Source of the DNA: Bellilinea caldifistulae
Lineage (GTDB): Bacteria > Chloroflexota > Anaerolineae > Anaerolineales > Anaerolineaceae
Direction of reading: 5' to 3'
DNA length: 32,000 nucleotides
Assembly: GCF_001306055.1 (NCBI RefSeq)
Contig: NZ_LGHJ01000014.1
Coordinates: 150,001 to 182,000, forward strand
The position numbers were made by a program, and so were the translations under genes. The notes beneath the pieces were generated by a model that did not search any database, was not told where the DNA came from, and saw only the letters and a list, made by a program, of their open reading frames with translations. Below are positions 1,074-12,886 of the stretch, one piece after another. Each line of letters starts with the position of its first letter. Position 1 is the stretch's first letter.

Positions 1074-2822
1074 ATGACCGCGGCATTGATCGAAATCGAA
1101 GATTTGTGGTACAGCCACCCGGTACGGGGGGGTGAGGCAATCCCAGCCCTTAAGGGCATCAACCTGCGGATTGAAGAGGGGGAATACGTTGCTTTGATCG
1201 GCGCCAACGGCTCTGGCAAGACAACCCTTGCGCGGCATTTGAATGCGCTGTTGTTGCCCGATAGGGGAGTTGTCCGAATTCATGGGATGGACACCCGCGA
1301 AGCCCGCTTTCATCCGCAAATTCGCAGTCTGGTGGGGATGGTATTTCAATCGCCGGAAGACCAGCTGGTGGCCGCCATACTGGAAGAGGATGTTGCCTTT
1401 GGGCCGGAAAATTTAGGATTACCGCCAGCCGAAATTCGCCAGCGGGTGGAAGATGCCCTGGAAATTACCGGCTTGAAGGAGTACCGCCAGCGGCCTCCCC
1501 ATTTGCTTTCGGCCGGACAGATGCAGCGGGCAGCCCTGGCAGGGGTTTTGGCGATGCGCCCGCGCTGTGTCATTTTCGACGAAACCACAGCCATGCTTGA
1601 CCCGGCCGGACGGCACATGGTCCGACGGCTGATGCGCCGTCTGCACGAAGAGGGGCTGACGGTGATCGTCATTTCGCACTTCATGCGCGAAGCGGTGGCA
1701 GCCCAGCGGGTAATTGTTCTGAACAAGGGCGAAATTGCGCTGGACAGCACACCCCAACAAGTGTTCAGCCACCCGGCTGACCTGTGGGCCTTGGGGCTGG
1801 ATCTGCCGCTGGCTGGCAGGCTGGCCATCCAACTGCGGGAAGTGCTGCCCGACCTTCCGCCGAATCTGCTGCGCTCCAACGATCTGATTGCTGCCCTGCC
1901 GCCTCCGCCCTTCCCGGTGAAGGCAGGCGGTGGGAGTGAACCCGACCGCCCGGTGCTGCCGCCGAATGGTTTTATCCGGGTGGACCGGCTAGGGCATACG
2001 TATCTGGCAGATACTCCGCTGGCGTATCAGGCTCTCGAAGAAGTGCGGTTGCATGCTGGTGAGGGAAAGGTGCACGGCCTGATCGGTTCAACCGGCTCTG
2101 GAAAATCCACCCTCTTACAGCACCTGAACGGTTTGCTGTTACCCCAAAAAGGTACGGTGGCGGTTGGGCCATTTGATTTGAACGACCCCACAACCGATTT
2201 GAAGGCTGTCCGCCAGTTTGCCGGTCTGGTTTTCCAGAATCCGGATTATCAGTTATTTGAACAATATGTGGGGGATGAGATTGCCTATGCACCTCGTTTG
2301 AAGGGTGAGCATGATTCGCTGCGGGAAACCGTGCGCATGGCCATGGAAATGGTCGGTCTGGATTTTGAATCCTTCAAAGACCGGCTCACCTTTACGCTGA
2401 GCGGAGGAGAACGCCGTAAAGTGGCGCTGGCTTCTTTGATTGCCATGCGTCCGCGGGTGCTGTTGCTGGATGAACCCACCGCCGGGCTCGATCCGCGTTC
2501 GCGCAGCGAAACGCTGCGTTCACTGGAAAATCTGCGCCAGCAGGGCCTGACGCTGGTGCTTTCCTCCCATCATATGGAAGATATTGCTGAATTAAGCAGC
2601 AGTTTGACCGTACTTCATCGCGGCAGAACGCTGCTGGACGGCGCTGCTGAAGAAGTTTATTCCAACGTCAGTCTGCTGGAAGAACACGGGCTTGAAGCCC
2701 CGCTGGTGACCCGGGCGGCGGCTCGCCTAAGGGAACTGGGGTGGGACATTCCTCGCTGCATTTTGCGAATTGGCGACCTGATTGAACATCTGCGCCGCAA
2801 TCTGGAGGCTCCGCATGCATAA
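1074..2822 (+). CDS. ecfA: Fused ECF-transporter ATPase (EcfA-EcfA', two ABC domains)
   Basis: 582 aa. Walker A motifs GANGSGKTT and GSTGSGKST, ABC signatures LSAGQMQR and LSGGERRK. The two domains are joined by a Pro-rich linker (LPPPPFPVKAGGGSEPDRPVLPP). Its stop overlaps the start of the downstream T-component gene. Confidence 0.9.
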   Translation: MTAALIEIEDLWYSHPVRGGEAIPALKGINLRIEEGEYVALIGANGSGKTTLARHLNALLLPDRGVVRIHGMDTREARFHPQIRSLVGMVFQSPEDQLVAAILEEDVAFGPENLGLPPAEIRQRVEDALEITGLKEYRQRPPHLLSAGQMQRAALAGVLAMRPRCVIFDETTAMLDPAGRHMVRRLMRRLHEEGLTVIVISHFMREAVAAQRVIVLNKGEIALDSTPQQVFSHPADLWALGLDLPLAGRLAIQLREVLPDLPPNLLRSNDLIAALPPPPFPVKAGGGSEPDRPVLPPNGFIRVDRLGHTYLADTPLAYQALEEVRLHAGEGKVHGLIGSTGSGKSTLLQHLNGLLLPQKGTVAVGPFDLNDPTTDLKAVRQFAGLVFQNPDYQLFEQYVGDEIAYAPRLKGEHDSLRETVRMAMEMVGLDFESFKDRLTFTLSGGERRKVALASLIAMRPRVLLLDEPTAGLDPRSRSETLRSLENLRQQGLTLVLSSHHMEDIAELSSSLTVLHRGRTLLDGAAEEVYSNVSLLEEHGLEAPLVTRAAARLRELGWDIPRCILRIGDLIEHLRRNLEAPHA

Positions 2823-3642
2823 TTTTGAATTTTTGCGGATGGTCAACATCGGGCAATATCTGCCGCTGAATTCGCTCCTTCACCGCCTGGATGCCCGGGC
2901 GCGGATCATCCTGTATCTGGTGATCCTCATGGCGGCGACTTTCACGGCTCAACCTGCCGGTCTGTTCTTGGCTTTATTAATTGTGCTGGTGCTGTTGAGG
3001 ATTGGACGCATCCCGCTGAATTTTGCTTTGCGCGGTTTGTTGCCGCCATTACCCTTTCTTTTGATCCTTGCGGTTTTGCAGGTTTTTGTCTCGATCCGCC
3101 CCCCCAGTGCCTTGCCGCTGTTTGAGTTTGGGATATTGAAAATCTACGCCAGTGGTTTGGTCTCGGCCGGCATGCTGCTCCTGCGGTTTTGTGTGTTAAT
3201 TCTGACGCTTTCCCTCTCATCGTTCACGCTTTCAACTTCCGAGATGATTCACGGGCTGGAATCGCTGCTCTCGCCTTTTTCCCGGCTAGGCCTGCCGACC
3301 CACGATTTGGTGATGGTCTTGCAGGTTACCATCCGGTTCATTCCCTTTTTGGCGATGGCTGCCGAGCGGATAGCCAAAGCACAGGCATCCCGCGGGGCGG
3401 AGTGGGGGGTGAGAAAAGGCAACATTTTTCAACGAGTACGACAGGTTATCCCGTTGATTGTGCCGTTGTTTCTGACCAGTTTACGCCGCGCCGAAACTAT
3501 GGCTCTGGCGATGGACGCGCGGGCTTATGGAAGTACCCCCCAGCGTACTTCCATGTACACCATGCAGTTTCAATTCAAAGACGCAGTCGCCATCATTTTT
3601 GGCGCCGTCAGCGCGACTGCAATCCTGATTTTGGGGATATAG
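2815..3642 (+). CDS. ecfT: ECF transporter transmembrane (T) component
   Basis: The ORF track gives 2782-3642. I prefer the in-frame ATG at 2815 (MHNFEFLRMVNIGQY...) because GGAGG sits at 2804-2808 and the start forms an ATGCATAA overlap with the ecfA stop. The protein is polytopic and carries the two EcfT coupling motifs AQASRGAEW and AMDARAYGS. Confidence 0.88.
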   Translation: MHNFEFLRMVNIGQYLPLNSLLHRLDARARIILYLVILMAATFTAQPAGLFLALLIVLVLLRIGRIPLNFALRGLLPPLPFLLILAVLQVFVSIRPPSALPLFEFGILKIYASGLVSAGMLLLRFCVLILTLSLSSFTLSTSEMIHGLESLLSPFSRLGLPTHDLVMVLQVTIRFIPFLAMAAERIAKAQASRGAEWGVRKGNIFQRVRQVIPLIVPLFLTSLRRAETMALAMDARAYGSTPQRTSMYTMQFQFKDAVAIIFGAVSATAILILGI

Positions 3643-3644
3643 GC

Positions 3645-4202
3645 TTACAGCCTTGCGCCTTTGCGATTACCCACGGCAAACTGCTGCCAGGCAGCTACCA
3701 CAACCAGGGTAATCAATGCCGATACGCCCGCTTCGGGCAATCCGTTGGCAATTGCAATGGGCAGCAAAGCCGCAAACGGCAAAAAGCCAAGTATCCCGAT
3801 CATGCCCAGCACCAGGATAGTATTGGTCAGGCTACCGGCAATACCCGCAAGAATCAGCGCTGGGACCGTCCATTTCCGCAAAGATTGCCAGACCAGCCAA
3901 GCAACCGGGCCGATGAACAGGCGCGGCAAGACGGAAAGAAGCGGATTGGTAAACCAGACATCCGCCGGGCCGGTTGGTGCTACGGCTGCTTGAATCAGGC
4001 TGAAGATGCCGAAAATCAAGCCAATGCCCAGGCCGACAATTGGCCCTTCCAGCACTGCGCCGATGATCACAGGAACGTGCATGATGGTCAAAGAAGCTCC
4101 ACTAACCCATGGGATGAAGCCCAGACGGGTCAGTCCCAGGAGAACAGCGATTGCCCCCAATACGCCAGTAATAACAATTTTACGGGTGCGATTTTGTGGC
4201 AT
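3645..4202 (-). CDS. ECF transporter S (substrate-capture) component; substrate unknown, possibly PanT-like
   Basis: 185 aa with about 6 TM helices. The motif LTIMHVPVIIGAVLEGP plus NPLLSVLPRLFIGPVAW is typical of the ECF_trnsprt S-component family. AAGGAG precedes the ATG. The gene is convergent with ecfT, with only 2 nt between the two stop codons. Confidence 0.75.
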   Translation of the reverse strand: MPQNRTRKIVITGVLGAIAVLLGLTRLGFIPWVSGASLTIMHVPVIIGAVLEGPIVGLGIGLIFGIFSLIQAAVAPTGPADVWFTNPLLSVLPRLFIGPVAWLVWQSLRKWTVPALILAGIAGSLTNTILVLGMIGILGFLPFAALLPIAIANGLPEAGVSALITLVVVAAWQQFAVGNRKGARL

Positions 4203-4400: not shown

Positions 4401-5837
4401 ATGAACCGACCCCTGCGCTGGTATGATTACATTACGATCAATATCTACTGGTTTGCGCTGACCACCCGTTCTCAGACCATTTCACCATTGATCCTGCCAC
4501 TGCTCGTTCAGCAATTCATAGGCGAGCAGGCCAAGGGAGCGGCTTTGGGAAACATCCGCTTATGGGCCTTGATGACTGCGGTACTGGTACAGGCGTTAAT
4601 GGGGATGCTTTCCGACCGGAGCACCCATCCCTGGGGCCGGCGCCGCCCGTTCATTCTGCTGGGTTCGCTGGGTGAGTTGATTGTTTTTGCCCTGCTCGGC
4701 TTTGTGGCGGGGATGGAAGGCATGAGCGGTTATACAGCCATGTTTGCCATCTACGTTTTTTCCATGGTTTCTTCCAACATTGCTCACGCGGCTACCCAGG
4801 GATTGATACCTGATTTGGTGCCGGAGGAAAAACGCGGTCGCTTTTCAGGGGTCAAAGCCCTGCTGGAACTGCCCGTGCCGGTGATTTTTGTTTCATTTGT
4901 CATGGGACGGCTGGTCAGTCAGGGGCAATTGTGGACGGCGTTGATGATTCTGATGGCGGTGTTGGTTATCTGCACGGCGCTGGCGATGTTGGTGCCGGAA
5001 AAGCGTTTGGAGCAGCCACCTTTCCCACTCGACTGGCAGGGATTCTTCCGGCTGACTTTGATGACGGTTGTTTTTACCCTGATCATTCTTGGGATGGGTG
5101 GAGTTGTGCGCTGGTTCTTAAACCTCTCCTTGCCGGAGGGTATTTTTAAGACGGTTGCGACAATTTTCGCCGGAATTCTCTCGATGGGGATTGCCGTGGC
5201 TTTGGGGGTGCTTGCCAGTTTGAGAATTGGGGTGGGTAAAGACATTCGCTATCAGCCCTCGTTCAAGTGGTGGGTGGTCAACCGGCTGGCATTCCTGGTG
5301 GGTTCAACCAATGTGGCAACTTTTCTGGTCTTCTTTTTGCAAGAACGCTTCCCGCAATTTGCAGGTGAAAAAGCGGCCGCGCCCGCGGCCACCATTACCA
5401 TGTTTGTGGGGGTATTTATCCTGCTCACGGCTTTACCGAGCGGTTTTTTAGCCGACCGCTTTGGAAAAAAGATTCTGGTGGCGATTGCCGGTCTGCTGGC
5501 TGCTGGCGGAATAGGTGTGATGCTGTTATTCCCAACACTGATAGCCCTGTATGCAGCCGGTTCACTGGTGGGAGCGGGGGTAGGGCTGTTTTACTCGGCT
5601 AACTGGGCTTTGGGCACGGAAATTGTTCCGCGCGAGCAAGCCGGGCGCTTCCTGGGGCTTTCTAACCTGGCCGGTGCGGGTGCAGGGGCAATTGGGGCAT
5701 ATATTGCCGGCCCAATTGCCGATGCCACCGGCTATACATTGATCATGGCGTTGTACGGTGTTTTGTTTCTCGCCTCAGTTTTGTTTTTGCCATATATTGA
5801 GGAAAAGCGAATTGGCTCATCACCGGTGGGCGGGTAA
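4401..5837 (+). CDS. MFS transporter (GPH/MelB-like motif)
   Basis: 478 aa with about 12 TM helices. The motif SDRSTHPWGRRRPFILLG resembles the D-R-x-x-x-x-G-R-R-R-P loop of glycoside-pentoside-hexuronide-type MFS carriers. Confidence 0.8.
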   Translation: MNRPLRWYDYITINIYWFALTTRSQTISPLILPLLVQQFIGEQAKGAALGNIRLWALMTAVLVQALMGMLSDRSTHPWGRRRPFILLGSLGELIVFALLGFVAGMEGMSGYTAMFAIYVFSMVSSNIAHAATQGLIPDLVPEEKRGRFSGVKALLELPVPVIFVSFVMGRLVSQGQLWTALMILMAVLVICTALAMLVPEKRLEQPPFPLDWQGFFRLTLMTVVFTLIILGMGGVVRWFLNLSLPEGIFKTVATIFAGILSMGIAVALGVLASLRIGVGKDIRYQPSFKWWVVNRLAFLVGSTNVATFLVFFLQERFPQFAGEKAAAPAATITMFVGVFILLTALPSGFLADRFGKKILVAIAGLLAAGGIGVMLLFPTLIALYAAGSLVGAGVGLFYSANWALGTEIVPREQAGRFLGLSNLAGAGAGAIGAYIAGPIADATGYTLIMALYGVLFLASVLFLPYIEEKRIGSSPVGG

Positions 5838-5865
5838 CCTTTTGCCGGTCTAATCCGTCTAAAAG
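5834..5865 (+). promoter_or_regulatory. Predicted ECF-sigma-dependent promoter of the sigma/anti-sigma operon (autoregulatory)
   Basis: GTAACCTTTTGccggtctaatcCGTCTAAAAG has AAC-N17-CGT geometry and lies about 15 nt upstream of the GTG start at 5881. It is a near-duplicate of the motif at 6728-6757. Confidence 0.6.
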
Positions 5866-5880
5866 TGAGGAAACCAGCGC

Positions 5881-6477
5881 GTGAATGAAGTGGAAATACT
5901 CCGTGGCTTGAAATCGGATCAACCTCAGGCGGCCCTGAGCCTGCTCTTTGAACAGTATGCCGACCGGGTTTACCATCTTGCGCTTGGTCTGCTTGGAAAT
6001 GAAGATGACGCCGAAGATGTCGTTCAGGATACTTTTCTCTCCGTATTTCGCAACCGCTTTCAGTTCGAGGGCCGGTCTTCAGCGGGCACCTGGCTTTACC
6101 GAATTGCCTATAATCTGAGTCTGGACCGGTTGCGGACAAAACAAACCCTGCCGCTGCCAGAAGAGGAGGGTGCGGATGACGAGGATCATCCTGCGCCTTT
6201 GCCGCGCGAATTTGTGGAGTGGCGCTGGCTGCCGGAGTATTTGATTCAGAATCAGGAACAGCGCAAGGCATTGGATGAGGCCATCCATTCCCTCTCGCCG
6301 GCTTTGCGGGCGGTGTTTTTACTGCGGGATGTGGAGGAACTGTCCACCGAGGAAACTGCGGCGGTGCTTTCAATTTCGGCTTCGGCAGTCAAGGTGCGCC
6401 TGCACCGCGCCCGGCTGGAATTGCGCGAAAAGTTGGCGGCTTTTTTTGCGGCTCAGGAGAAAGGAGCAGTGCAATGA
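5881..6477 (+). CDS. RNA polymerase ECF-type sigma-70 family factor
   Basis: 198 aa with a GTG start preceded by GAGGAA. Region 2 reads DDAEDVVQDTFLSVFRN...WLYRIAYNLSLDRLR. Region 4 reads LSPALRAVFLLRDVEELSTEETAAVLSISASAVKVRLHRARLELREKL. Confidence 0.92.
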   Translation: MNEVEILRGLKSDQPQAALSLLFEQYADRVYHLALGLLGNEDDAEDVVQDTFLSVFRNRFQFEGRSSAGTWLYRIAYNLSLDRLRTKQTLPLPEEEGADDEDHPAPLPREFVEWRWLPEYLIQNQEQRKALDEAIHSLSPALRAVFLLRDVEELSTEETAAVLSISASAVKVRLHRARLELREKLAAFFAAQEKGAVQ

Positions 6478-6731
6478 ATTGCGAGGAGTTAATCCGTTAT
6501 TTGTCGGATTATATTGACAACAATCTCAACGAAGACCTGCGTGCGGATGCGGAAGAACATCTGCGCACCTGCCATAATTGCCATGTGGTTCTGGATACCA
6601 CCCGAAAGACCATTCTGATGTATAAGGGCAGCCTCAAAGAGCCGATTCCTGCCCCGCGCCGAGAAGCCTTGTTTGATCGTCTGCTCAAAGCCATTTCAGA
6701 TCGAGAAGATTGCCCTCCCGAAGGAATGTAA
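6474..6731 (+). CDS. Zinc-finger (ZAS, H-x3-C-x2-C) anti-sigma factor, soluble, no TM segment
   Basis: 85 aa. Its ATG overlaps the sigma stop (ATGA at 6474-6477), implying translational coupling. Motif H29-LRT-C33-HN-C36 plus N-terminal C3. There is no hydrophobic segment, so the architecture is RsrA-like. Confidence 0.8.
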   Translation: MNCEELIRYLSDYIDNNLNEDLRADAEEHLRTCHNCHVVLDTTRKTILMYKGSLKEPIPAPRREALFDRLLKAISDREDCPPEGM

Positions 6732-6757
6732 CCTTTTGAGGGCTTCCTCGTCAAAAG
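6728..6757 (+). promoter_or_regulatory. Predicted ECF-sigma-dependent promoter for the DUF2892 and Trx-DUF2892 genes
   Basis: GTAACCTTTTGagggcttcctCGTCAAAAG has AAC-N16-CGT geometry. It overlaps the anti-sigma stop codon and lies about 40 nt upstream of the ATG at 6798. The 11-nt -35 block is identical to that of the site at 5834. Confidence 0.6.
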
Positions 6758-6797
6758 GGTAGAAGTTCAAACGATCATTCTGAAGGAGGAATAAGCC

Positions 6798-6998
6798 ATG
6801 TCTTTCGTAAATGAGTCAACCGTAGATCGGATTATCCGGGTTGTGGCAGGTGTTTTATTGTTAGCCCTTGGATGGGGCGGTGTGGTTACCGGTACGCTGG
6901 GTACTATCTTCAAATTCCTTGGTTTTTTACCGTTGTTGACCGGCCTGATCGGTTGGTGCCCGGCTTACTCCTTATTCAAATTCCGCACGAATTCCTGA
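6798..6998 (+). CDS. DUF2892 (YgaP-type transmembrane domain) small membrane protein
   Basis: 66 aa. VDRIIRVVAGVLLLALGWGG...LGFLPLLTGLIGWCPAYSLF matches the remembered DUF2892 pattern of DR-x-x-R, two TM helices and a C-P-x-Y motif. A strong AGGAGG RBS sits at 6784-6789. Confidence 0.8.
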   Translation: MSFVNESTVDRIIRVVAGVLLLALGWGGVVTGTLGTIFKFLGFLPLLTGLIGWCPAYSLFKFRTNS

Positions 6999-7013
6999 AT
7001 TAATTCCAATCCC

Positions 7014-7082
7014 ATCGGCTGCTGGCTGAGAGACTTCTGGGTTGGGCATCACCCAACGCGGAGCGTTCAACCAGCAGCCGGT
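7014..7082 (+). other. Intercistronic structured element (long-range 10-bp GC stem enclosing an inner hairpin)
   Basis: CGGCTGCTGG (7016-7025) pairs perfectly with CCAGCAGCCG (7071-7080). Inner hairpin GTTGGG (7041-7046) / CCCAAC (7052-7057) with loop CATCA. No U-run follows on the plus strand. Confidence 0.5.
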
Positions 7083-7111
7083 TGCTGAATCAGACCCTGT
7101 AAGGACTTTCA

Positions 7112-7630
7112 ATGACACCCGAACAATTTGAACAAAAAGTGGCTTCTGCCCGTCAACCGCTGGTGGTGGAATTTTGGGCGCCCTGGTGCGGTCCGTGTAA
7201 AGTCATGAACCCAATTTTGAAGGCTGCCAGTGAAAAGTACCGCGGGCAGGTAGAATTGTTGAAAATCAACGCAGACGAATCCCCTGATCTTTTACGGCAG
7301 TTGAAAGTGTTCAGCATTCCCACCCTGCTGGTGTATCGGGAGGGAAAGGCTGTTTACCGAAAGGTTGGCGCCCAACCAGCCGCTGCGATTGATAATTTGT
7401 TTGCCGATTTGGCCTCCGGTAAAATTATCCAGAAAAGTGGCCCTGCCCCCCTGGATCGTTTTTTGCGATTGGGGGCAGGACTTGTTTTGTTGGGGATTGG
7501 GATAACCAACCAGATGAACATCGGGTTGGTGGTGATGGGGGGAATCGTGATGTTTAGCGCGGTGTATGACCGCTGTCCTATCTACCGGGCGATTTCCAGC
7601 CGGGTGAAGACCCTTTTTGAAAAACCCTAA
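7112..7630 (+). CDS. Thioredoxin fused to a C-terminal DUF2892 membrane domain
   Basis: 172 aa. The active site WCGPC is encoded at 7184-7198, within a thioredoxin fold (VVEFWAPWCGPCKVMNPIL...FSIPTLLVY). The C-terminal LDRFLRLGAGLVLLGIGI...GGIVMFSAVYDRCPIYRAI repeats the DUF2892 pattern, including C-P-x-Y. Confidence 0.85.
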   Translation: MTPEQFEQKVASARQPLVVEFWAPWCGPCKVMNPILKAASEKYRGQVELLKINADESPDLLRQLKVFSIPTLLVYREGKAVYRKVGAQPAAAIDNLFADLASGKIIQKSGPAPLDRFLRLGAGLVLLGIGITNQMNIGLVVMGGIVMFSAVYDRCPIYRAISSRVKTLFEKP

Positions 7631-8080
7631 TTAAGGCCCGCTTACGGTTGGATAACCAGCGTTACGCCAGGCGATAATACCGCCGCTAACGCTGGTTACT
7701 TTTTCGTAGCCGGCTTGCAGTAAAATATCCCGCCCGGCCTGACTGCGGTTACCCGAGCGACAGATTACCACAATTTCCTTGTCTTTTGGCACTTCACTGA
7801 TCCGCTGGGGCAGTTGATCCAACGGGATGAGCGTTGCCCCGGGAACATGCAGTTCATTCCATTCTTCCGGTTGGCGCACGTCCAAAACCCATGCGCCCTG
7901 GTCGCGAAGTTGAGCGGCTTGAGATACCGAAATTTCTGGCGGTAAAGCGCGGGTTTCCGCCGGGGAAGTGCGGGTGAGAAGGAAGGCAGCGCCTGCTATA
8001 AGGACAATTGCCAGCAGGATGGCATACACCGGAAAACGCCTGTGTTCAAATGAGCCTGAGGATGTCTTTTGACGAGTCAT
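7631..8080 (-). CDS. Membrane-anchored single-domain rhodanese (sulfurtransferase)
   Basis: 149 aa. N-terminal signal anchor (RRFPVYAILLAIVLIAGAAFLL) with most positive charge before the helix. Rhodanese active-site loop VVICRSGNRS. Its stop codon directly abuts the stop of the Trx-DUF2892 gene (TAATTA at 7628-7633). Confidence 0.85.
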   Translation of the reverse strand: MTRQKTSSGSFEHRRFPVYAILLAIVLIAGAAFLLTRTSPAETRALPPEISVSQAAQLRDQGAWVLDVRQPEEWNELHVPGATLIPLDQLPQRISEVPKDKEIVVICRSGNRSQAGRDILLQAGYEKVTSVSGGIIAWRNAGYPTVSGP

Positions 8081-8215
8081 GGATTGTTCCTGTCATGAGT
8101 GAGATTCAATCTATCGGTTTTGATTCAATTTTACGGTAAAGGTTACAGGATGTGGGGTAAAATAGAAACGGGTCATTATCCCTGATCAATCAAAGCGGAA
8201 GGGATATTCAAAAAA

Positions 8216-9607
8216 ATGTTCATCAGCCGGGAGAGTTTCAGCACCCATACTCTGGATGAGCACCCGCATGGGGAGATTGTCAAACGGGTGTTGTTCGCCG
8301 CTTTGCGGGCCGTGGATCCGGCTACTGCGGTGGCGCGCTTTCTCGAACGAGAGGGTGACCTGTTGTTTGCCGGAGGGCGGAGTTATGACCTCAGCCGTTA
8401 CCGACGCGTGTTTATCGTTGGAGCAGGCAAGGCCGCAGCACCGATGACCAAAGCCGCTGCCCGGATTCTGGGAGACCGCCTTTCGGGGGGAATGATTATC
8501 TGTAAAGAAGGTTTTTTGCGGGAAAATGCCGTCGGCGGAGCAATCCCCGAGCGGATTCAGGTGGCCGAAGCCTCTCACCCGCTGCCGGATATGCGCGGTG
8601 TGAATGCAACCCGTCGGATGCTTGCCCTGCTCAACCGGGCGAGTGAAAATGATCTGGTGCTGGCATTGATTTCCGGTGGTGGATCGGCGCTGATGACTGC
8701 CCCTGCCGAGGGAATTTCCCTGGCAGATTTGCAGTCTCTCACCAATTTGCTGCTGGCTTGCGGCGCTTCGATTGAAGAAATTAATACTCTGCGGAAACAT
8801 CTGGATGAAGTCAAGGGTGGCGGACTGGCGCGGGCGGCCGGCAAAGCCGATTTGCTGGCATTGATCCTCTCGGATGTGGTCGGCGATCCGCTGGATGTGA
8901 TCGCCTCCGGGCCAACCGTGGCTGACCCAACCACCTTTACGGATGCGCTGGCAATTTTACAACGGTACAATCTGGCAGAGCACACCCCACCCTCCATTCT
9001 TGAACGACTGCGCAGCGGTGCCGAAGGGAAAATACCCGAAACCCCAAAACCGGGAGATGGTTTGTTCCGGCGGGTTCAAAACCTGATCATTGCCAGTAAT
9101 CGGCATGCGGCTCAGGCTGCGGTTGAAGAAGCCGAAGAATGCGGACTGACCCCCCTGCTGCTGAGCACTTATTTACAAGGGGAAGCCCGTCAGTTGGGAA
9201 TGTTTTTGGGGTCAATTGCCCGTCAAATTCACGCCACCCGTCAGCCGCTACAACCGCCAGCCTGTTTGATTGCCGGTGGTGAGACGACAGTGACTCTTCA
9301 CGGAGATGGGCTGGGGGGACGCAATCAAGAAGTGGCACTCGGCGCCGTGCGCGGTTTGGACGGCACGCGCAATTTGCTGATGGTCACCCTGGCTTCCGAT
9401 GGTGACGACGGCCCCACGGATGCCGCCGGGGCGGTGGTCAGCGGAGAAACGTTACAAAGAGCCCTTGCCGCCGGAATGAAACCGGAAGATTATCTCGAGA
9501 GAAATGATTCTTACCATTTCTTTGATGCGCTGGGAGATTTGATCCGCACAGGCCCGACCCAGACAAACGTCAATGATTTGATGTTTCTGTTTGCTTTTGC
9601 GGATTGA
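8216..9607 (+). CDS. Glycerate 2-kinase / hydroxypyruvate reductase-like protein (DUF4147 + MOFRL family)
   Basis: 463 aa. FIVGAGKAAAPM in the N-terminal domain, and GGETTVTLHGDGLGGRNQEVALGA plus TNVNDL in the C-terminal MOFRL-type domain. No clear SD before the ATG at 8216, so the exact start is uncertain. Confidence 0.8.
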   Translation: MFISRESFSTHTLDEHPHGEIVKRVLFAALRAVDPATAVARFLEREGDLLFAGGRSYDLSRYRRVFIVGAGKAAAPMTKAAARILGDRLSGGMIICKEGFLRENAVGGAIPERIQVAEASHPLPDMRGVNATRRMLALLNRASENDLVLALISGGGSALMTAPAEGISLADLQSLTNLLLACGASIEEINTLRKHLDEVKGGGLARAAGKADLLALILSDVVGDPLDVIASGPTVADPTTFTDALAILQRYNLAEHTPPSILERLRSGAEGKIPETPKPGDGLFRRVQNLIIASNRHAAQAAVEEAEECGLTPLLLSTYLQGEARQLGMFLGSIARQIHATRQPLQPPACLIAGGETTVTLHGDGLGGRNQEVALGAVRGLDGTRNLLMVTLASDGDDGPTDAAGAVVSGETLQRALAAGMKPEDYLERNDSYHFFDALGDLIRTGPTQTNVNDLMFLFAFAD

Positions 9608-10289
9608 GACTTTCCAGCCCTGGCGGATTGGCTTTGGCAGTTGGTTGGGGTGTGATCTTGACCACCCGCCTTCGGCGATGGCGCGCCGAGAGGGCGCGTC
9701 TGAGCGGGGGGATTCGCACAATCAACAGCACAGCCAATACAACCGTGGCGGCTAGTGGTTTCCAAATATCTCCTTGCAGACGGAGAAAGTCGCCCTTGAC
9801 CGCCATGGCCAGATGAACGACCGCCAGCACGGCGGTGAGGTAAACCAGTTGGTGCAGGCGCTTCCATATTTTCCCCAGTGTTTTTTGCCACCAGCGATGG
9901 GAAGTCAATGCGAGGGGTGTCAGCAGGCTGATCGCCGCCAGTCCTATGAGGATATAGGGTTTATCGGCAATTGAGGCGTAAATCAGATTGAAGTCAAACT
10001 GATAATCCCAGCCGGTGTACGTGAGCATGTGCAGCGCTGCATAGAAGAAAGCGTACAGGCCAAGCGGGCGACGAAGTTTGAGCAACTGCGGAAGGTTGAA
10101 AAGGATGTGAAGGGGGGTCATCGTCAGAGAAGCCAGCAGGATGAGAATGGCGATATCCCCAGAGCGCTGGGTGGCTGCCTGGATCGGATTAATGGTCAGG
10201 TTATTGGTGAAGTAGGCAGCCGTCAACACCATTAACGGCAGCCAGCAGAGGATGTGAGTCAGCCATTGCAGGCGCGACCAGTTTTTCAT
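9570..10289 (-). CDS. msrQ: Protein-methionine-sulfoxide reductase heme-binding membrane subunit MsrQ (YedZ-like)
   Basis: The ORF track gives 9570-10352. I prefer the ATG at 10289 (MKNWSRLQWLTHILCWLPL...), 7 nt downstream of the msrP stop, which avoids overlap with msrP. Six TM helices with conserved His residues (ALHMLTY, VVHLAM) typical of the ferric-reductase-like YedZ family. The basic C-terminal tail overlaps the 3' end of the glycerate kinase gene by 38 nt. Confidence 0.8.
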   Translation of the reverse strand: MKNWSRLQWLTHILCWLPLMVLTAAYFTNNLTINPIQAATQRSGDIAILILLASLTMTPLHILFNLPQLLKLRRPLGLYAFFYAALHMLTYTGWDYQFDFNLIYASIADKPYILIGLAAISLLTPLALTSHRWWQKTLGKIWKRLHQLVYLTAVLAVVHLAMAVKGDFLRLQGDIWKPLAATVVLAVLLIVRIPPLRRALSARHRRRRVVKITPQPTAKANPPGLESLNPQKQTETSNH

Positions 10290-10296
10290 CGGCTTT

Positions 10297-11253
10297 TCAG
10301 TAATTAACCCGCAAGTCCATGTTGGCGTAAAGCTGCCCGACCTGCTCGGCATAACCGTTGAATAACAACGTTTCGCGGCGGCGGTTTTCGCCGATGCGCC
10401 GTTCGGTGGCCTGAGACCAGCGCGGGTGGGGCACTTCCGGGTTTACATTGGCATAAAAACCGTATTCATTAGGAGCAACCCTGTTCCAGAAGGTGGGCGG
10501 CATGGTTTCGGTGAGCTCGATTCTAACAATGGCTTTGCTGCTTTTGAAACCGTATTTCCACGGTACAGCCAGACGCAGCGGTGCTCCGTTTTGGGGGAGT
10601 AATTCCTTGCCGTACAGCCCGGTGACCAGCAGAGTCAAATCGTGGTAGGCTTCATCCAGCCGCAAGCCTTCGGTATAGGGCCATGGGTAAAAGGGGCTTC
10701 TTGCACCGGGCATGTTGTTCTCATCCAGAATTGTGGTGAACTGGACAAAGGCTGCACTGGTCATGGGCTCGACTTCTTTGAGCAGCAACGAAAGCGGAAA
10801 TCCGAGCCATGGGATGACCATAGACCAGCCTTCCACGCAGCGCAATCGGTAAACACGTTCTTCCTGCGGAAACTGGCGCAGGTCTTCGATGTCGAAAATG
10901 CGCGGCTTGTGAACCAGTCCGCTAACCTCCACCTGCCACGGACTGGTGGGAAAGTTTTTTGCCAGCGAAGCCACACCGCCCTTATCCATGGTGAATTCGT
11001 AATAATTGTTGTAGTTGGTAATTTCCTCAAAGGAATTGGCCGGGTCTCCCCGTTCATCGCGGGGGCGCTCCGCGGGGTTGATTGAGTCGGAATAACCAGG
11101 AGTGTTTTCAGACTGTGTTTTGATCCCACAGGCGGCCAACAAAGCCCCGGCTGCACCAACCGCCGCCAGTTTAAGGAATTGCCGTCGGTTCAGGTAAACG
11201 TGCTCGGGTGTGATTTCCGAGGAAGGGATGGGGGGAACAGTATTATTTTTCAT
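10297..11253 (-). CDS. msrP: Molybdopterin-dependent protein-methionine-sulfoxide reductase catalytic subunit MsrP (YedY-like), Tat-exported lipoprotein
   Basis: 318 aa. Twin-arginine signal NRRQFLKLAAVGAAGALLAAC with a lipobox Cys. YedY-type core (NNYYEF, YRLRCVEGWSMVIPWLGFPL, LRLAVPWKYGFKSSKAIVRIE). Confidence 0.88.
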   Translation of the reverse strand: MKNNTVPPIPSSEITPEHVYLNRRQFLKLAAVGAAGALLAACGIKTQSENTPGYSDSINPAERPRDERGDPANSFEEITNYNNYYEFTMDKGGVASLAKNFPTSPWQVEVSGLVHKPRIFDIEDLRQFPQEERVYRLRCVEGWSMVIPWLGFPLSLLLKEVEPMTSAAFVQFTTILDENNMPGARSPFYPWPYTEGLRLDEAYHDLTLLVTGLYGKELLPQNGAPLRLAVPWKYGFKSSKAIVRIELTETMPPTFWNRVAPNEYGFYANVNPEVPHPRWSQATERRIGENRRRETLLFNGYAEQVGQLYANMDLRVNY

Positions 11254-11499
11254 ATTCGGTTAATCCTGACTGGCTATTCTTGTTTATATGGACATGTTTA
11301 GTCCACTTAACCTTACCAGAGATGGTGAGATTTTTCAAATCTTTATCGAGTGTTGGCCGGTGGGCAGGGTTGTGTGGAAATTGGTGCGCAGAAACGTAAG
11401 ATTGCCGAAAATTGACACTCTAATGAGTGATAGGCATCCTGCAAGCAGGGCTGCCACGACATCGAAAAAGGCTCGAAAATCAACGGAGAAAGGTATAAC

Positions 11500-12192
11500 A
11501 TGAAGAGGCAATTTCTCATTTCTAACCTGCTGATCGTTATGGTGTTTTTACTGACAGCCTGTGCACCCGGTGGGGTCGTTCCGGCTACGGTTCAAGAAAA
11601 TACCCCCCTGCCTGTTTCGACCGGGGTTGATGAGATGAAAAGCGAGTCAGTAACACCCGATGGAGATGAAAACAACGCTTCGCAATCGCAGTCACAAACG
11701 CCGATCGAAGAGGGTGAATCTTCACCTGATACGCAGACCCTGCCGGACTGGTTTAAGGTGGAATTGGTTAATGTAGAAAACGATGAGGTATTCACAATCG
11801 AATCCCTGACGGGAAAAGTAATCCTCGTTGAAACGATGGCGCAGTGGTGTTCCAATTGTTTGCGCCAACAACAAGAGGTCAAAGCCTTACATCAGTTACT
11901 GGGTGAGCGGGAGGATTTTGTGAGCATTGGCCTGGATATTGATCCCAACGAAGATGCCGCTACGCTCAAGAGCTACATTGCCCGGCATGAATTCAATTGG
12001 ATTTATGCGGTTTCCCCAGCGGAAGTCTCGCGTTCGCTGAGCGATCTCTATGGGCCTCAATTTCTATCGCCCCCCTCGACCCCGATGCTCATCATTGATC
12101 GGGCAGGCAGCGTGTATCCTTTACCCATGGGAATCAAATCGGCAGAGCGATTGAGGGAATTTTTACAGCCTTACTTAGAAACCAATCGTTGA
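11500..12192 (+). CDS. TlpA/ResA-like extracytoplasmic thiol-disulfide oxidoreductase lipoprotein
   Basis: 230 aa. Lipoprotein signal MKRQFLISNLLIVMVFLLTAC, an acidic low-complexity linker, and a thioredoxin fold with the WCSNC active site. RBS GGAGAAAGG. Confidence 0.8.
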   Translation: MKRQFLISNLLIVMVFLLTACAPGGVVPATVQENTPLPVSTGVDEMKSESVTPDGDENNASQSQSQTPIEEGESSPDTQTLPDWFKVELVNVENDEVFTIESLTGKVILVETMAQWCSNCLRQQQEVKALHQLLGEREDFVSIGLDIDPNEDAATLKSYIARHEFNWIYAVSPAEVSRSLSDLYGPQFLSPPSTPMLIIDRAGSVYPLPMGIKSAERLREFLQPYLETNR

Positions 12193-12205
12193 AGGGTTGT
12201 GAAGC

Positions 12206-12886
12206 GTGGAGAACATCTTGACTTCACTGACCATCGGATTGCTGGCAACCACCAGTCCATGCGTTTTTCCACTTTACCCGGGCTATCTGGCTTATTTGAG
12301 CGGCGGTCATGAAAAATTGCAAGAAAGCAAGGGCCGATTTTTACTCGGCTTTTTCGTGCTTTGTGGGGTATTGAGTATGATGCTGGCAATTGGGCTGCTG
12401 ATTGCCTTGCTGGCAATACCCATCGGAAATGCGCTTTCCCTGGTTATCCCGTTGGCAAATGGATTGATCTTTCTACTTGGAGTTTTATTATTGCTGAACA
12501 TCAATCCGTTCAAATCTTTGCCGATGATTCGCATTCCTGTTCTTCAAAATCCGTATTTGAATGCTTTTGTTTATGGACTGCTCTACGGACCAATTGCGTT
12601 GCCTTGTGCCGGCCCGCTGGTTGTGAGTGTGTTTGCCCTTTCGCTGAGTGCCGGGGAACTTATTAACCGGTTAAGCACTTTCTTATGGTTTGGTTTGGGA
12701 TTTGGTCTACCACTGCTGTTGCTTTCTTTTCTGGCTGGAGCCCAGCAGCGGTGGATTACCCGTCAATTCGCCCGCTACGGGAATTGGGTAAATCGAATTG
12801 GGGGCATCATTTTGATCACGATAGCCGTGGTGGATCTGGCATCGAATTGGGAGTTGATTCGGTTTACATGGTCGCGATTCAACTAA
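12206..12886 (+). CDS. ccdA: CcdA/DsbD-family transmembrane thiol-disulfide electron transporter
   Basis: 226 aa with a GTG start and 6 TM helices. The two signature membrane-embedded cysteines are present: TSPCVFPLYPGYL and PIALPCAGPLV. Confidence 0.85.
   Translation: MENILTSLTIGLLATTSPCVFPLYPGYLAYLSGGHEKLQESKGRFLLGFFVLCGVLSMMLAIGLLIALLAIPIGNALSLVIPLANGLIFLLGVLLLLNINPFKSLPMIRIPVLQNPYLNAFVYGLLYGPIALPCAGPLVVSVFALSLSAGELINRLSTFLWFGLGFGLPLLLLSFLAGAQQRWITRQFARYGNWVNRIGGIILITIAVVDLASNWELIRFTWSRFN

Follow-up and report, generated by a model that had tools for sequence, protein, structure and literature searches.

What a thioredoxin gains from fusion to a DUF2892 hairpin, and why such a fusion should be encoded together with a second, free hairpin, a rhodanese and a regulatory gene pair, is the question raised by a locus of Bellilinea caldifistulae (Anaerolineae, Chloroflexota), which lies in a 32,000-nt stretch of contig NZ_LGHJ01000014.1 that was analysed as a whole and is referred to here as the window. 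DUF2892/YgaP-like hairpins are widespread small membrane proteins without an established function. The answer we favour, albeit at slightly less than an even chance, is that the locus encodes a stress-induced, membrane-tethered thioredoxin that services the cysteine of the DUF2892 hairpin, within a regulon of three transcription units governed by the adjacent extracytoplasmic function (ECF) sigma factor.

Five open reading frames make up the block (Table 1), as the sequence-only reading had reported, and in profile searches every domain assigned to them exceeds its Pfam cut-off. The sigma factor consists of regions 2 and 4 only (Sigma70_r2, 68.7 bits; Sigma70_r4_2, 60 bits) and scores 106 bits against the NCBIfam model TIGR02937 (sigma70-ECF, cut-off 42.9). 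The gene for the zinc-binding anti-sigma factor (ZAS) overlaps that of the sigma factor by 4 bp, and its product matches zf-HC2 with 35.5 bits (cut-off 22.2), with the pair at 5881-6731 thereby combining the two-region sigma factor and the co-transcribed anti-sigma gene that characterise an ECF sigma factor with a cognate anti-sigma factor. The free hairpin matches YgaP-like_TM (PF11127) with 68.3 bits (cut-off 25.3), whilst the fusion carries a thioredoxin domain at residues 2-95 (PF00085, 97.4 bits, cut-off 23.5), which also passes the thioredoxin equivalog TIGR01068 (104.9, cut-off 96.8), and a second hairpin at residues 114-162 (PF11127, 36.8 bits, cut-off 25.3); for comparison, E. coli YgaP reaches 32.9 bits with the same hairpin profile. 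The gene convergent to the fusion encodes a protein that matches Rhodanese (PF00581) with 72 bits and is predicted to be a single-domain rhodanese sulfurtransferase. The motifs WCGPC, CRSGNRS, WCPAY and RCPIY, named in the sequence-only reading, are all present, and the stop codon of the fusion (TAA, 7628-7630) directly abuts that of the rhodanese gene (TTA, 7631-7633).

Table 1. Genes, candidate promoters and RNA hairpin of the locus, in window coordinates.
Feature	Coordinates	Strand	Basis
ECF (group IV) sigma-70 family sigma factor, 198 aa	5881..6477	+	Pfam, NCBIfam
Soluble zinc-binding anti-sigma factor (ZAS), 85 aa, no transmembrane segment	6474..6731	+	zf-HC2
Free DUF2892/YgaP-like two-helix membrane hairpin, 66 aa	6798..6998	+	PF11127
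Thioredoxin::DUF2892 fusion, 172 aa, TrxA-type domain followed by two-helix hairpin	7112..7630	+	Pfam, NCBIfam, AlphaFold
Single-domain rhodanese, 149 aa, N-terminal signal anchor, loop CRSGNRS	7631..8080	-	PF00581
Candidate autoregulatory ECF promoter of the sigma-ZAS operon, GTAACCTTTTGCCGGTCTAATCCGTCTA	5834..5861	+	GTAACCTTT copy
Candidate ECF promoter of the DUF2892 -> thioredoxin::DUF2892 operon, GTAACCTTTTGAGGGCTTCCTCGTCAA	6728..6754	+	GTAACCTTT copy
Candidate ECF promoter of the rhodanese gene, minus-strand GTAACCTTTACCGTAAAATTGAATCAA	8120..8146	-	third GTAACCTTT copy
Long imperfect RNA hairpin, free DUF2892/fusion intergenic spacer (113 nt)	7014..7082	+	folding

The promoter motif and the genes it precedes

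Control of the block by its own sigma factor, which the sequence-only reading had proposed from a predicted promoter, gains support from a motif that recurs both within the window and across the family. The window contains exactly three copies of the 9-mer GTAACCTTT, namely at 5834 (+), 6728 (+) and 8146 (-), with 0.13 expected by chance and three reached in none of 100 shuffles, and each copy lies 45-70 nt upstream of a module gene, in the orientation of that gene. In its fuller form, TGTAACCTTT-N13-(C/A)(G/A)TC.A, the motif precedes the sigma, free DUF2892 and rhodanese genes, and its conventional reading is TGTAAC-N16/17-CGTC, the AAC/CGT architecture usual for ECF promoters. The copy ahead of the sigma-ZAS operon has -35 GTAACC and -10 CGTCTA; the second shares bases with the ZAS stop codon, the ATG of free DUF2892 following about 70 nt further on; and the third, that of the rhodanese gene, was absent from the earlier account. 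As no copy stands ahead of the fusion gene, the fusion looks co-transcribed with free DUF2892. Footprinting shows that L081 and L086 (L-numbers are the labels of relatives' loci in the survey described below), the fusions of which are 67% and 46% identical, retain the motif at each of the three positions, and it also stands ahead of the orthologous sigma genes in L081, L086, L089, L090 and L092. The assignment of the three candidate promoters to the adjacent ECF sigma factor is therefore supported. A scan of 5600-8400 for sigma-70 promoters and terminators gave nothing beyond shuffled expectation, and the spaced pattern TAACC-N19-TCNAAA, in which the spacing is wrong, gave no matches.

At both co-directional promoters the -35 GTAACC holds the TAA stop codon of the upstream gene (MFS transporter, 5835-5837; ZAS, 6729-6731). 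The promoter of the free DUF2892 gene also contains a near-perfect inverted repeat, AACCTTTTGA-N9-TCAAAAGGGT, at 6730-6758, from which the sigma-ZAS transcript could form a hairpin at its 3' end. A palindromic operator was rejected as the meaning of the motif, the sigma and rhodanese copies not being palindromic and the motif consisting of two asymmetric blocks at the fixed spacing typical of ECF promoters.

The survey of relatives drew on 80 metagenomic loci from a scan with the DUF2892 half of the fusion only, together with four genome loci and loci found by look-up of exact proteins; a scan of genome contigs with the full fusion alignment was swamped by the generic thioredoxin pattern WAPWCxPC, leaving the four true fusion loci. 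Open reading frames were called and classed by hidden Markov models built from the window proteins, and de-replication at 90% identity gave 69 representatives. A free DUF2892 gene lies directly upstream of the fusion, on the same strand, in 49 of the 59 loci with enough upstream sequence (83%). Where at least 1.5 kb was available on both flanks (27 loci), a rhodanese was found within 3 kb in nine and an ECF sigma factor within 5 kb in ten, eight of these ten with a ZAS. The conserved synteny anticipated for the block thus holds for free DUF2892 followed by the fusion, whereas sigma/ZAS and rhodanese are adjacent in only about one third of loci. The complete sigma-ZAS-DUF2892-fusion-rhodanese block is present in L081 and L086, and the sigma orthologues adjoining the fusion operon in other loci are 44-87% identical, with the sigma/ZAS genes arranged co-directionally, divergently or downstream of the operon. 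The divergent and downstream pairs are orthologues likewise, with identities of 44-50% for the sigma factors and 41-48% for the ZAS.

Of 61 de-replicated loci, 32 have a generalised motif, whose pattern covers both clades (the second clade having TG(C/T)AACTTTT-N13-CATC.A), in the 160 nt that precede the operon. Its usual distance from the start codon is about 70 nt, and its spacer measures 13 nt in 30 of the 32; about 24 of the 32 were unused in defining the pattern. By comparison, random windows of the same loci averaged 0.97, with 5 as the maximum, and shuffling of the upstream regions gave 0.06. In Anaerolinea the motif stands upstream of the operon though neither sigma factor nor rhodanese adjoins. 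At all eight anchored-rhodanese loci TGy(A/C)ACyTT-N13-(A/C)(A/C)TC.A lies upstream of the rhodanese gene, and the genes for the soluble rhodaneses of L151 and L154 are preceded by a variant motif. None of the four sigma-less loci checked by footprinting (L082, L084, L085 and L088) has the strict 9-mer. It might be held that the genes are merely adjacent, that there is no module and that the repeated 9-mer is coincidental, and part of the synteny (MFS, DUF4147, MsrQP) is indeed plain background conservation among close relatives. However, three copies against 0.13 expected, all correctly oriented, an enrichment of 32 of 61 against about one, and the persistence of motif and gene pair amid wholly different surrounding genes in L084, L085, L088 and L170 effectively refute this explanation, which we regard as hardly credible. 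The DUF2892 -> thioredoxin::DUF2892 operon is well supported as the predicted signature target of this sigma/ZAS group, with the rhodanese gene as a recurrent member of the putative regulon.

The stop codons of the fusion and rhodanese genes abut or overlap in five of six close relatives, leaving no space for terminators between the convergent genes, so that transcripts from the same sigma factor must collide. The gaps are 0, -14, 8, 0 and -4 nt in the window, L086, L090, L092 and L093, respectively.

The fusion family comprises 1399 clusters at E<=1e-5; of these the best 120 were inspected, nearly all having both domains, and the weaker matches may include plain thioredoxins. At 50% identity, the best 150 representatives include about 59 full-length fusions. 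The source labels of the fusions so far are all Anaerolineae or Chloroflexota, and one free DUF2892 match is labelled Gemmatimonadota. Database names are 'thioredoxin' for the fusion and 'DUF2892 domain-containing / YgaP family membrane protein' for the free protein. The free protein evolves more slowly than the neighbouring fusion, with 88% against 67% identity to the window proteins (P0306 and P0011 of Ga0484006_000001).

The DUF2892 cysteine and the predicted membrane topology

The active site of the fusion is W25-C26-G-P-C29, and across 107 fusions, which are 44-50% identical overall, W25, C26, C29, D55, P70, G86, R116, R119, Y152, D153 and C155 are invariant, with F148, R154 and P156 conserved in at least 90%. 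The single cysteine of the free DUF2892 protein, C54, lies in WCPAY, and exactly one cysteine is found at the aligned position in all 52 co-encoded free proteins, as part of C-P in 42 of them. Direct alignment with YgaP of E. coli MG1655 places C159 of the latter against both C155 and C54, with R115, G123, L126 and G147 also common to the alignment; YgaP itself has no cysteine other than C159 and the catalytic C64. The cysteine that the sequence-only reading had noticed in both hairpins of this locus is thus shared by the whole set of fusions and free proteins, and by YgaP. The fusion may accordingly serve as a 'Rosetta stone' for the domain, a hairpin joined to a thioredoxin, with the same invariant cysteine and usually with a free copy co-encoded, pointing to the cysteine as the business end and to the thioredoxin as its reductant.

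Were the hairpin of the fusion a mere membrane anchor, the protein would be a general thioredoxin at the inner membrane face, reducing oxidised membrane or membrane-associated proteins under stress, and free DUF2892 would be an independent stress protein sharing the promoter. The canonical TrxA-type domain, above the thioredoxin equivalog cut-off, is consistent with this, as are the other thiol-redox enzymes (AhpC/TSA-Redoxin and double glutaredoxin-like proteins) repeatedly found in the sigma/ZAS neighbourhoods, and the ten of 59 fusion loci without a free DUF2892 gene. A mere anchor would not, however, keep F148, Y152, D153, R154, C155 and P156 invariant or nearly so in 107 sequences of such divergence, nor does it account for a free partner that has the same single cysteine in 52 of 52 cases and stands directly upstream in 83% of loci. 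We consider this explanation unlikely, though deserving of real weight.

In the AlphaFold model of the fusion (pLDDT 87, pTM 0.67), a thioredoxin fold (residues 1-101) is connected by a linker of about ten residues to helices 113-132 and 137-151 and a basic C-terminal helix, with the helix break lying exactly at Y152-D-R-C155, followed by the proline. Foldseek searches with this model return classical thioredoxins only (TM 0.84-0.91, rmsd 1.3-1.8 Å), with no solved structure among them spanning both the thioredoxin and DUF2892 domains. As expected of a TrxA-type protein, the fusion is predicted to have disulfide reductase activity recycled by thioredoxin reductase. The hairpin flanks are basic, with charges of +1.7 and +3.7 in the fusion and +1.1 and +2.75 in the free protein, and the loop charge is 0, a pattern that places both termini, the DUF2892 cysteine and the thioredoxin in the cytoplasm (predicted). 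Taken together, the model and the charge analysis put the conserved cysteine, with D and R on either side of it, where helix 2 ends towards the cytoplasm. YgaP is a dimer in which the packing of the second transmembrane helix around C159 tightens on binding of SCN-, and a role in carrying a small sulfur anion through the membrane has been suggested for its transmembrane domain (PMC4730233). By analogy, the hairpins of the DUF2892 proteins described here may dimerise as well.

The rhodanese loop CRSGNRS aligns with CQAGKRT of YgaP, with the catalytic cysteine in a six-residue CxxGxR loop. In nine of nine anchored homologues the N-terminal flank carries a charge of +3 to +6 and the flank following the helix a charge of about 0, from which an N-in/C-out orientation, with the catalytic domain outside the cell, is predicted. 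The operon-linked rhodaneses fall into two types, the first signal-anchored, of 146-169 aa, with the loop CRSGNRS, and the second soluble, of 115-117 aa, with the loop C(I/V)CA(T/S)G(H/S)RS; as the two are unrelated, the association of rhodanese and operon arose more than once. The sequence-only reading had described the block as a split YgaP, and as a direct cytoplasmic relay this description does not fit the locus, with the rhodanese predicted outside and the thioredoxin and the cysteine inside.

The likeness to YgaV-YgaP of E. coli nevertheless extends to the PF11127 hairpin with its equivalent cysteine, to a rhodanese with a CxxGxR[ST] loop, and to a thiol-based regulator. In contrast to YgaP, in which a cytoplasmic rhodanese and DUF2892 form one chain, the hairpin is here attached to a thioredoxin rather than to the rhodanese, a second free hairpin is co-encoded, and the rhodanese is encoded on its own, with a predicted location outside the membrane; the regulator is an ECF sigma factor with a ZAS, as opposed to the ArsR/SqrR-type repressor YgaV. 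The co-regulation of a thioredoxin with a single-domain sulfurtransferase is also known from rhodanese-thioredoxin couples, such as the E. coli GlpE-thioredoxin couple, MST-Trx and the persulfide reductases TrxP/TrxQ of S. aureus, however the two proteins of this locus are predicted to lie on opposite sides of the membrane, and its thioredoxin bears a hairpin with an invariant cysteine of its own. Membrane-attached proteins of thioredoxin fold likewise act in stress or maturation pathways in the form of TlpA, ResA, HCF164 and TMX with CcdA/DsbD, but these face outward on a single N-terminal anchor and receive their electrons via CcdA/DsbD, whereas the fusion has no signal sequence, implying a cytoplasmic thioredoxin, and is anchored by two C-terminal helices.

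The opposed orientations of thioredoxin and rhodanese within one regulon would be explained by a transmembrane relay of the DsbD/CcdA kind, for reducing equivalents or for sulfur, in which the cytoplasmic thioredoxin would pass electrons by way of the DUF2892 cysteines to the outside rhodanese, either regenerating the active-site cysteine of the latter or taking over its persulfide sulfur. The small sulfur anion proposed to be moved by the transmembrane domain of YgaP is in keeping with such a relay, as is periplasmic PspE, which turns thiosulfate into cellular sulfane sulfur (PMC10215317). We nonetheless think it quite improbable, as the cysteines of CcdA/DsbD lie in the membrane core but that of DUF2892 where helix 2 meets the cytoplasm, each hairpin has only one cysteine, and a bona fide Redoxin and DsbD_TM pair is already encoded 3.5 kb away. 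Furthermore, the regulon rhodanese of the second clade is soluble and cytoplasmic, and in the majority of loci a rhodanese gene is missing from the neighbourhood.

A third kind of DUF2892 fusion is encoded a few kb from the thioredoxin::DUF2892 operon in two loci (L112:7734-8627 and L154:7718-8611), this being a protein of 297 aa that begins with a DUF2892 domain (63-69 bits) and continues for about 230 residues without a Pfam match. On a broader reading, which we find rather improbable, DUF2892 dimers would be a general cysteine-gated device that binds or carries small sulfur species (persulfide, polysulfide, thiosulfate or thiocyanate) at paired interfacial cysteines, fitted with lineage-specific heads, namely the rhodanese in YgaP, the thioredoxin here and the domain of about 230 aa in L112 and L154. 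In Anaerolineae the heterodimer and the outward rhodanese, induced by the ECF sigma factor, might then form a transmembrane sulfur relay by which outside sulfane sulfur crosses the membrane and leaves reductively as sulfide; if true, this would be a new kind of relay.

The anti-sigma factor and the inducing signal

The zinc ligands of the ZAS, C3-x25-H29-x3-C33-x2-C36, have a spacing identical to that of C11/H37/C41/C44 in RsrA, and all 16 ZAS orthologues are soluble proteins of 84-98 aa with the same four ligands. The label 'RsrA-like' given to the protein earlier is therefore apt as regards architecture and zinc ligands, but not beyond, with a score against the RsrA equivalog TIGR03988 of 27.2 bits, far under the cut-off of 62.5, and without the residues on which redox sensing depends in RsrA. 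In RsrA, redox sensitivity has been traced to acidic residues before the first cysteine of the motif and to a leucine and a charged residue after the second (HFEECSPCLEK; E39, E40, L45 and E46), the corresponding stretch of the redox-insensitive RsiW being HLETCEKCRKH; the signature was drawn from actinomycetes only, as its authors caution (Jung et al., PMC3177212). These determinants are absent from the ZAS of the window, which reads HLRTCHNCHVV, with R-T before C33 and H-V after C36.

The systems to which the locus was first likened, SigR-RsrA of Streptomyces and SigH-RshA of mycobacteria (ECF12), drive trxBA on thiol oxidation and have in common with it a soluble C-x25-H-x3-C-x2-C ZAS, an autoregulated sigma factor and a thioredoxin in the regulon. 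The present pair belongs to the Chloroflexota, however, and its thioredoxin is membrane-tethered; its ZAS differs as described above, and so does its promoter, TGTAAC-N16/17-CGTC, the SigR consensus being GGAAT-N18-GTT. The -35 element, TGTAACCTTTT, resembles that of the ECF16 group (Caulobacter SigF-NrsF, Bradyrhizobium EcfF-OsrA, Brucella BcrS-AbcS), to which it is near-identical, rather than that of SigR. ECF16 promoters have been mapped by 5'-RACE or primer extension as GATGTAACCTTTTT...GCGAA for Brucella BcrS and tGTAACc-N16-CGAA for Bradyrhizobium EcfF, and TGTAACCTTTT equals the -35 of both. The BcrS and EcfF systems respond to HOCl, H2O2 and singlet oxygen, and drive MsrPQ-type genes and genes for periplasmic thioredoxin/DsbD-like proteins. 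Common to the two groups are also an autoregulated operon and redox-repair genes in the regulon or nearby, those of the window being the MsrQP and Redoxin/CcdA genes just downstream. The -10 element, in contrast, is CGTC or CATC here and CGAA in ECF16, the anti-sigma factor is a soluble ZAS of 85 aa instead of a DUF1109 protein with six transmembrane segments, and the upstream region shared by the MsrP and Redoxin-CcdA genes (11254-11499) is without the ECF motif, for which reason these genes are not counted in the regulon.

Thiol-reactive stress appears to be the most plausible inducing signal, a suggestion that stems from the content of the regulon and the kinship of its promoters and not from the ZAS sequence. 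Alternatively, the sigma/ZAS pair could sense another cue (zinc or another metal, a protein partner or a protease), with sulfur trafficking as its output, in the form of thiosulfate assimilation or sulfide handling in a sulfidic anaerobic habitat, rather than the repair of damage. The absence of the RsrA redox determinants fits this alternative, and B. caldifistulae is a strict anaerobe. The precedents for DUF2892 are, moreover, all linked to sulfide or low oxygen, with E. coli ygaVP derepressed by sulfide via a cysteine-based sensor (PMC9774250), a free DUF2892 protein of Azospira induced about 10-fold by H2S (PMC5358917), and a DUF2892 gene of the cyanobacterium Acaryochloris adjoining a rhodanese gene in a microoxically induced cluster (PMC5295598). 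We judge it rather improbable all the same, in view of the -35 element held in common with the oxidant-responsive ECF16 systems and the peroxiredoxin-like and glutaredoxin-like neighbours of orthologous sigma/ZAS pairs; sulfane sulfur is also itself thiol-reactive, and to that extent the alternative overlaps with the tethered-thioredoxin explanation.

The sigma/ZAS pairs of the second clade (L130, L134, L137, L118, L122 and L131) are flanked by an AhpC/TSA-Redoxin protein of 191-199 aa and also by a 222-aa double glutaredoxin/Thioredoxin_3-like protein. Among the second-clade genes of these two kinds that were inspected, none has a clear ECF motif ahead of it.

A proposed mechanism, and the genes around the block

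In the mechanism that we propose for the tethered thioredoxin, the small cytoplasmic zinc-finger anti-sigma factor would keep the sigma factor inactive until an oxidant, an electrophile or sulfane sulfur, as the most likely triggers, modifies its zinc-ligand cysteines. The freed sigma factor would then transcribe three units from promoters of the TGTAACCTTT-N13-CGTC type, these being its own operon (autoregulation), the operon of free DUF2892 and the fusion, and the rhodanese gene. The linker of about ten residues would hold the cytoplasm-facing, classical thioredoxin against the membrane on its YgaP-type hairpin, and this hairpin may pair with the co-expressed free hairpin, by analogy with the YgaP homodimer, bringing C155 and C54 side by side at the cytoplasmic membrane surface. 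Thioredoxins are able to reduce the persulfides of proteins and of rhodaneses (PMC6196236, PMC7995614), and the tethered thioredoxin would here reduce the disulfide, persulfide or polysulfide bridge formed on C155/C54 under stress, so keeping the DUF2892 unit in its active thiol state or resetting it. The rhodanese would supply or remove sulfane sulfur in the same response, from outside for the Bellilinea clade and, for the second clade, from within the cytoplasm, and the DUF2892 unit itself may handle small sulfur anions or sulfane sulfur, as proposed for YgaP. The precedents named above, namely sulfide-derepressed ygaVP, the H2S-induced protein of Azospira, the cyanobacterial cluster and PspE, speak for this mechanism as well.

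Several observations count against this mechanism and hold our confidence in it down. The predicted position of the anchored rhodanese is outside the membrane and that of the thioredoxin and DUF2892 cysteine inside, so that the rhodanese cannot be linked to these by direct contact. A free DUF2892 gene does not adjoin the fusion in ten of the 59 loci, so that the heterodimer is not obligatory. Around its HCC motif the ZAS, wanting the RsrA redox residues, is closer to the insensitive RsiW, as judged by a signature of actinomycete origin. The motif pattern was widened after about eight loci had been looked at and is in that respect partly post hoc, and the sample of loci consists of the best tblastn hits, biased towards Anaerolineae-like relatives. 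Neither the fusion DUF2892 profile nor the free DUF2892 sequence reached a solved YgaP structure in sequence searches of the PDB, with no YgaP chain returned at E<=1 or E<=10 and the presence of the entry for its transmembrane domain unconfirmed, and the analogy to YgaP therefore rests on the Pfam profile and one alignment.

All components belong to known families, and the logic of an ECF/ZAS pair acting on a thioredoxin has precedent. In full-text literature searches, DUF2892 was rarely mentioned and neither a thioredoxin fusion nor such a regulon was described, in agreement with the earlier statement that no functional account of a Trx-DUF2892 protein or of this gene arrangement was known. 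The locus provides a defined ECF sigma/ZAS group in the Chloroflexota, an under-studied phylum without genetics, with a readable motif and a compact regulon, and the recurrent link to rhodanese ties the DUF2892 domain to reactive-sulfur or thiol stress. If the proposed mechanism is true, a function will have been assigned to a DUF, a third type of membrane-attached thioredoxin, cytoplasm-facing and hairpin-anchored, will have been added to those described, and ZAS-based stress sensing will reach beyond the Actinobacteria and Firmicutes; no current concept would be overturned even then.

The spacer between the free DUF2892 and fusion genes folds into a hairpin (7014-7082) of -46.8 kcal/mol (z = -3.9), with none of 200 shuffles folding equally well, and L081 and L086 have hairpins at the same spacer position that are non-homologous to it. 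Scans of the window for Rfam families and tRNAs gave no matches, and the hairpin is therefore not a known riboswitch; it may be an element of mRNA stability or of partial termination that fixes how much free DUF2892 is made relative to the fusion. Two loci with a spacer of 10-20 nt (L082 and L170) have no hairpin.

Just downstream of the DUF2892-fusion pair, and convergent to it, one clade encodes a PIG-L family deacetylase and a ThiF-like protein (L085:5634-7198 and L088:5544-7188), the PIG-L family including deacetylases of low-molecular-weight-thiol biosynthesis. In the window, a pair encoding an MsrQ-like (Ferric_reduct) and an MsrP-like (TAT, molybdopterin oxidoreductase) protein occupies 9570-11253 (-) and is adjoined by the Redoxin and DsbD_TM/CcdA pair at 11500-12886 (+), the four genes together constituting an extracytoplasmic redox-repair cluster beside the module that is syntenic in L081, L082 and L086. 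On the other side lies an energy-coupling factor (ECF-type) transporter set (1074-4202), made up of a fused double ABC ATPase (1074-2822), a CbiQ T-component (2782-3642) and, on the opposite strand, an S-component (3645-4202), followed by the MFS transporter (4401-5837); transporter set and MFS gene form a background synteny common to L081, L082 and L086.

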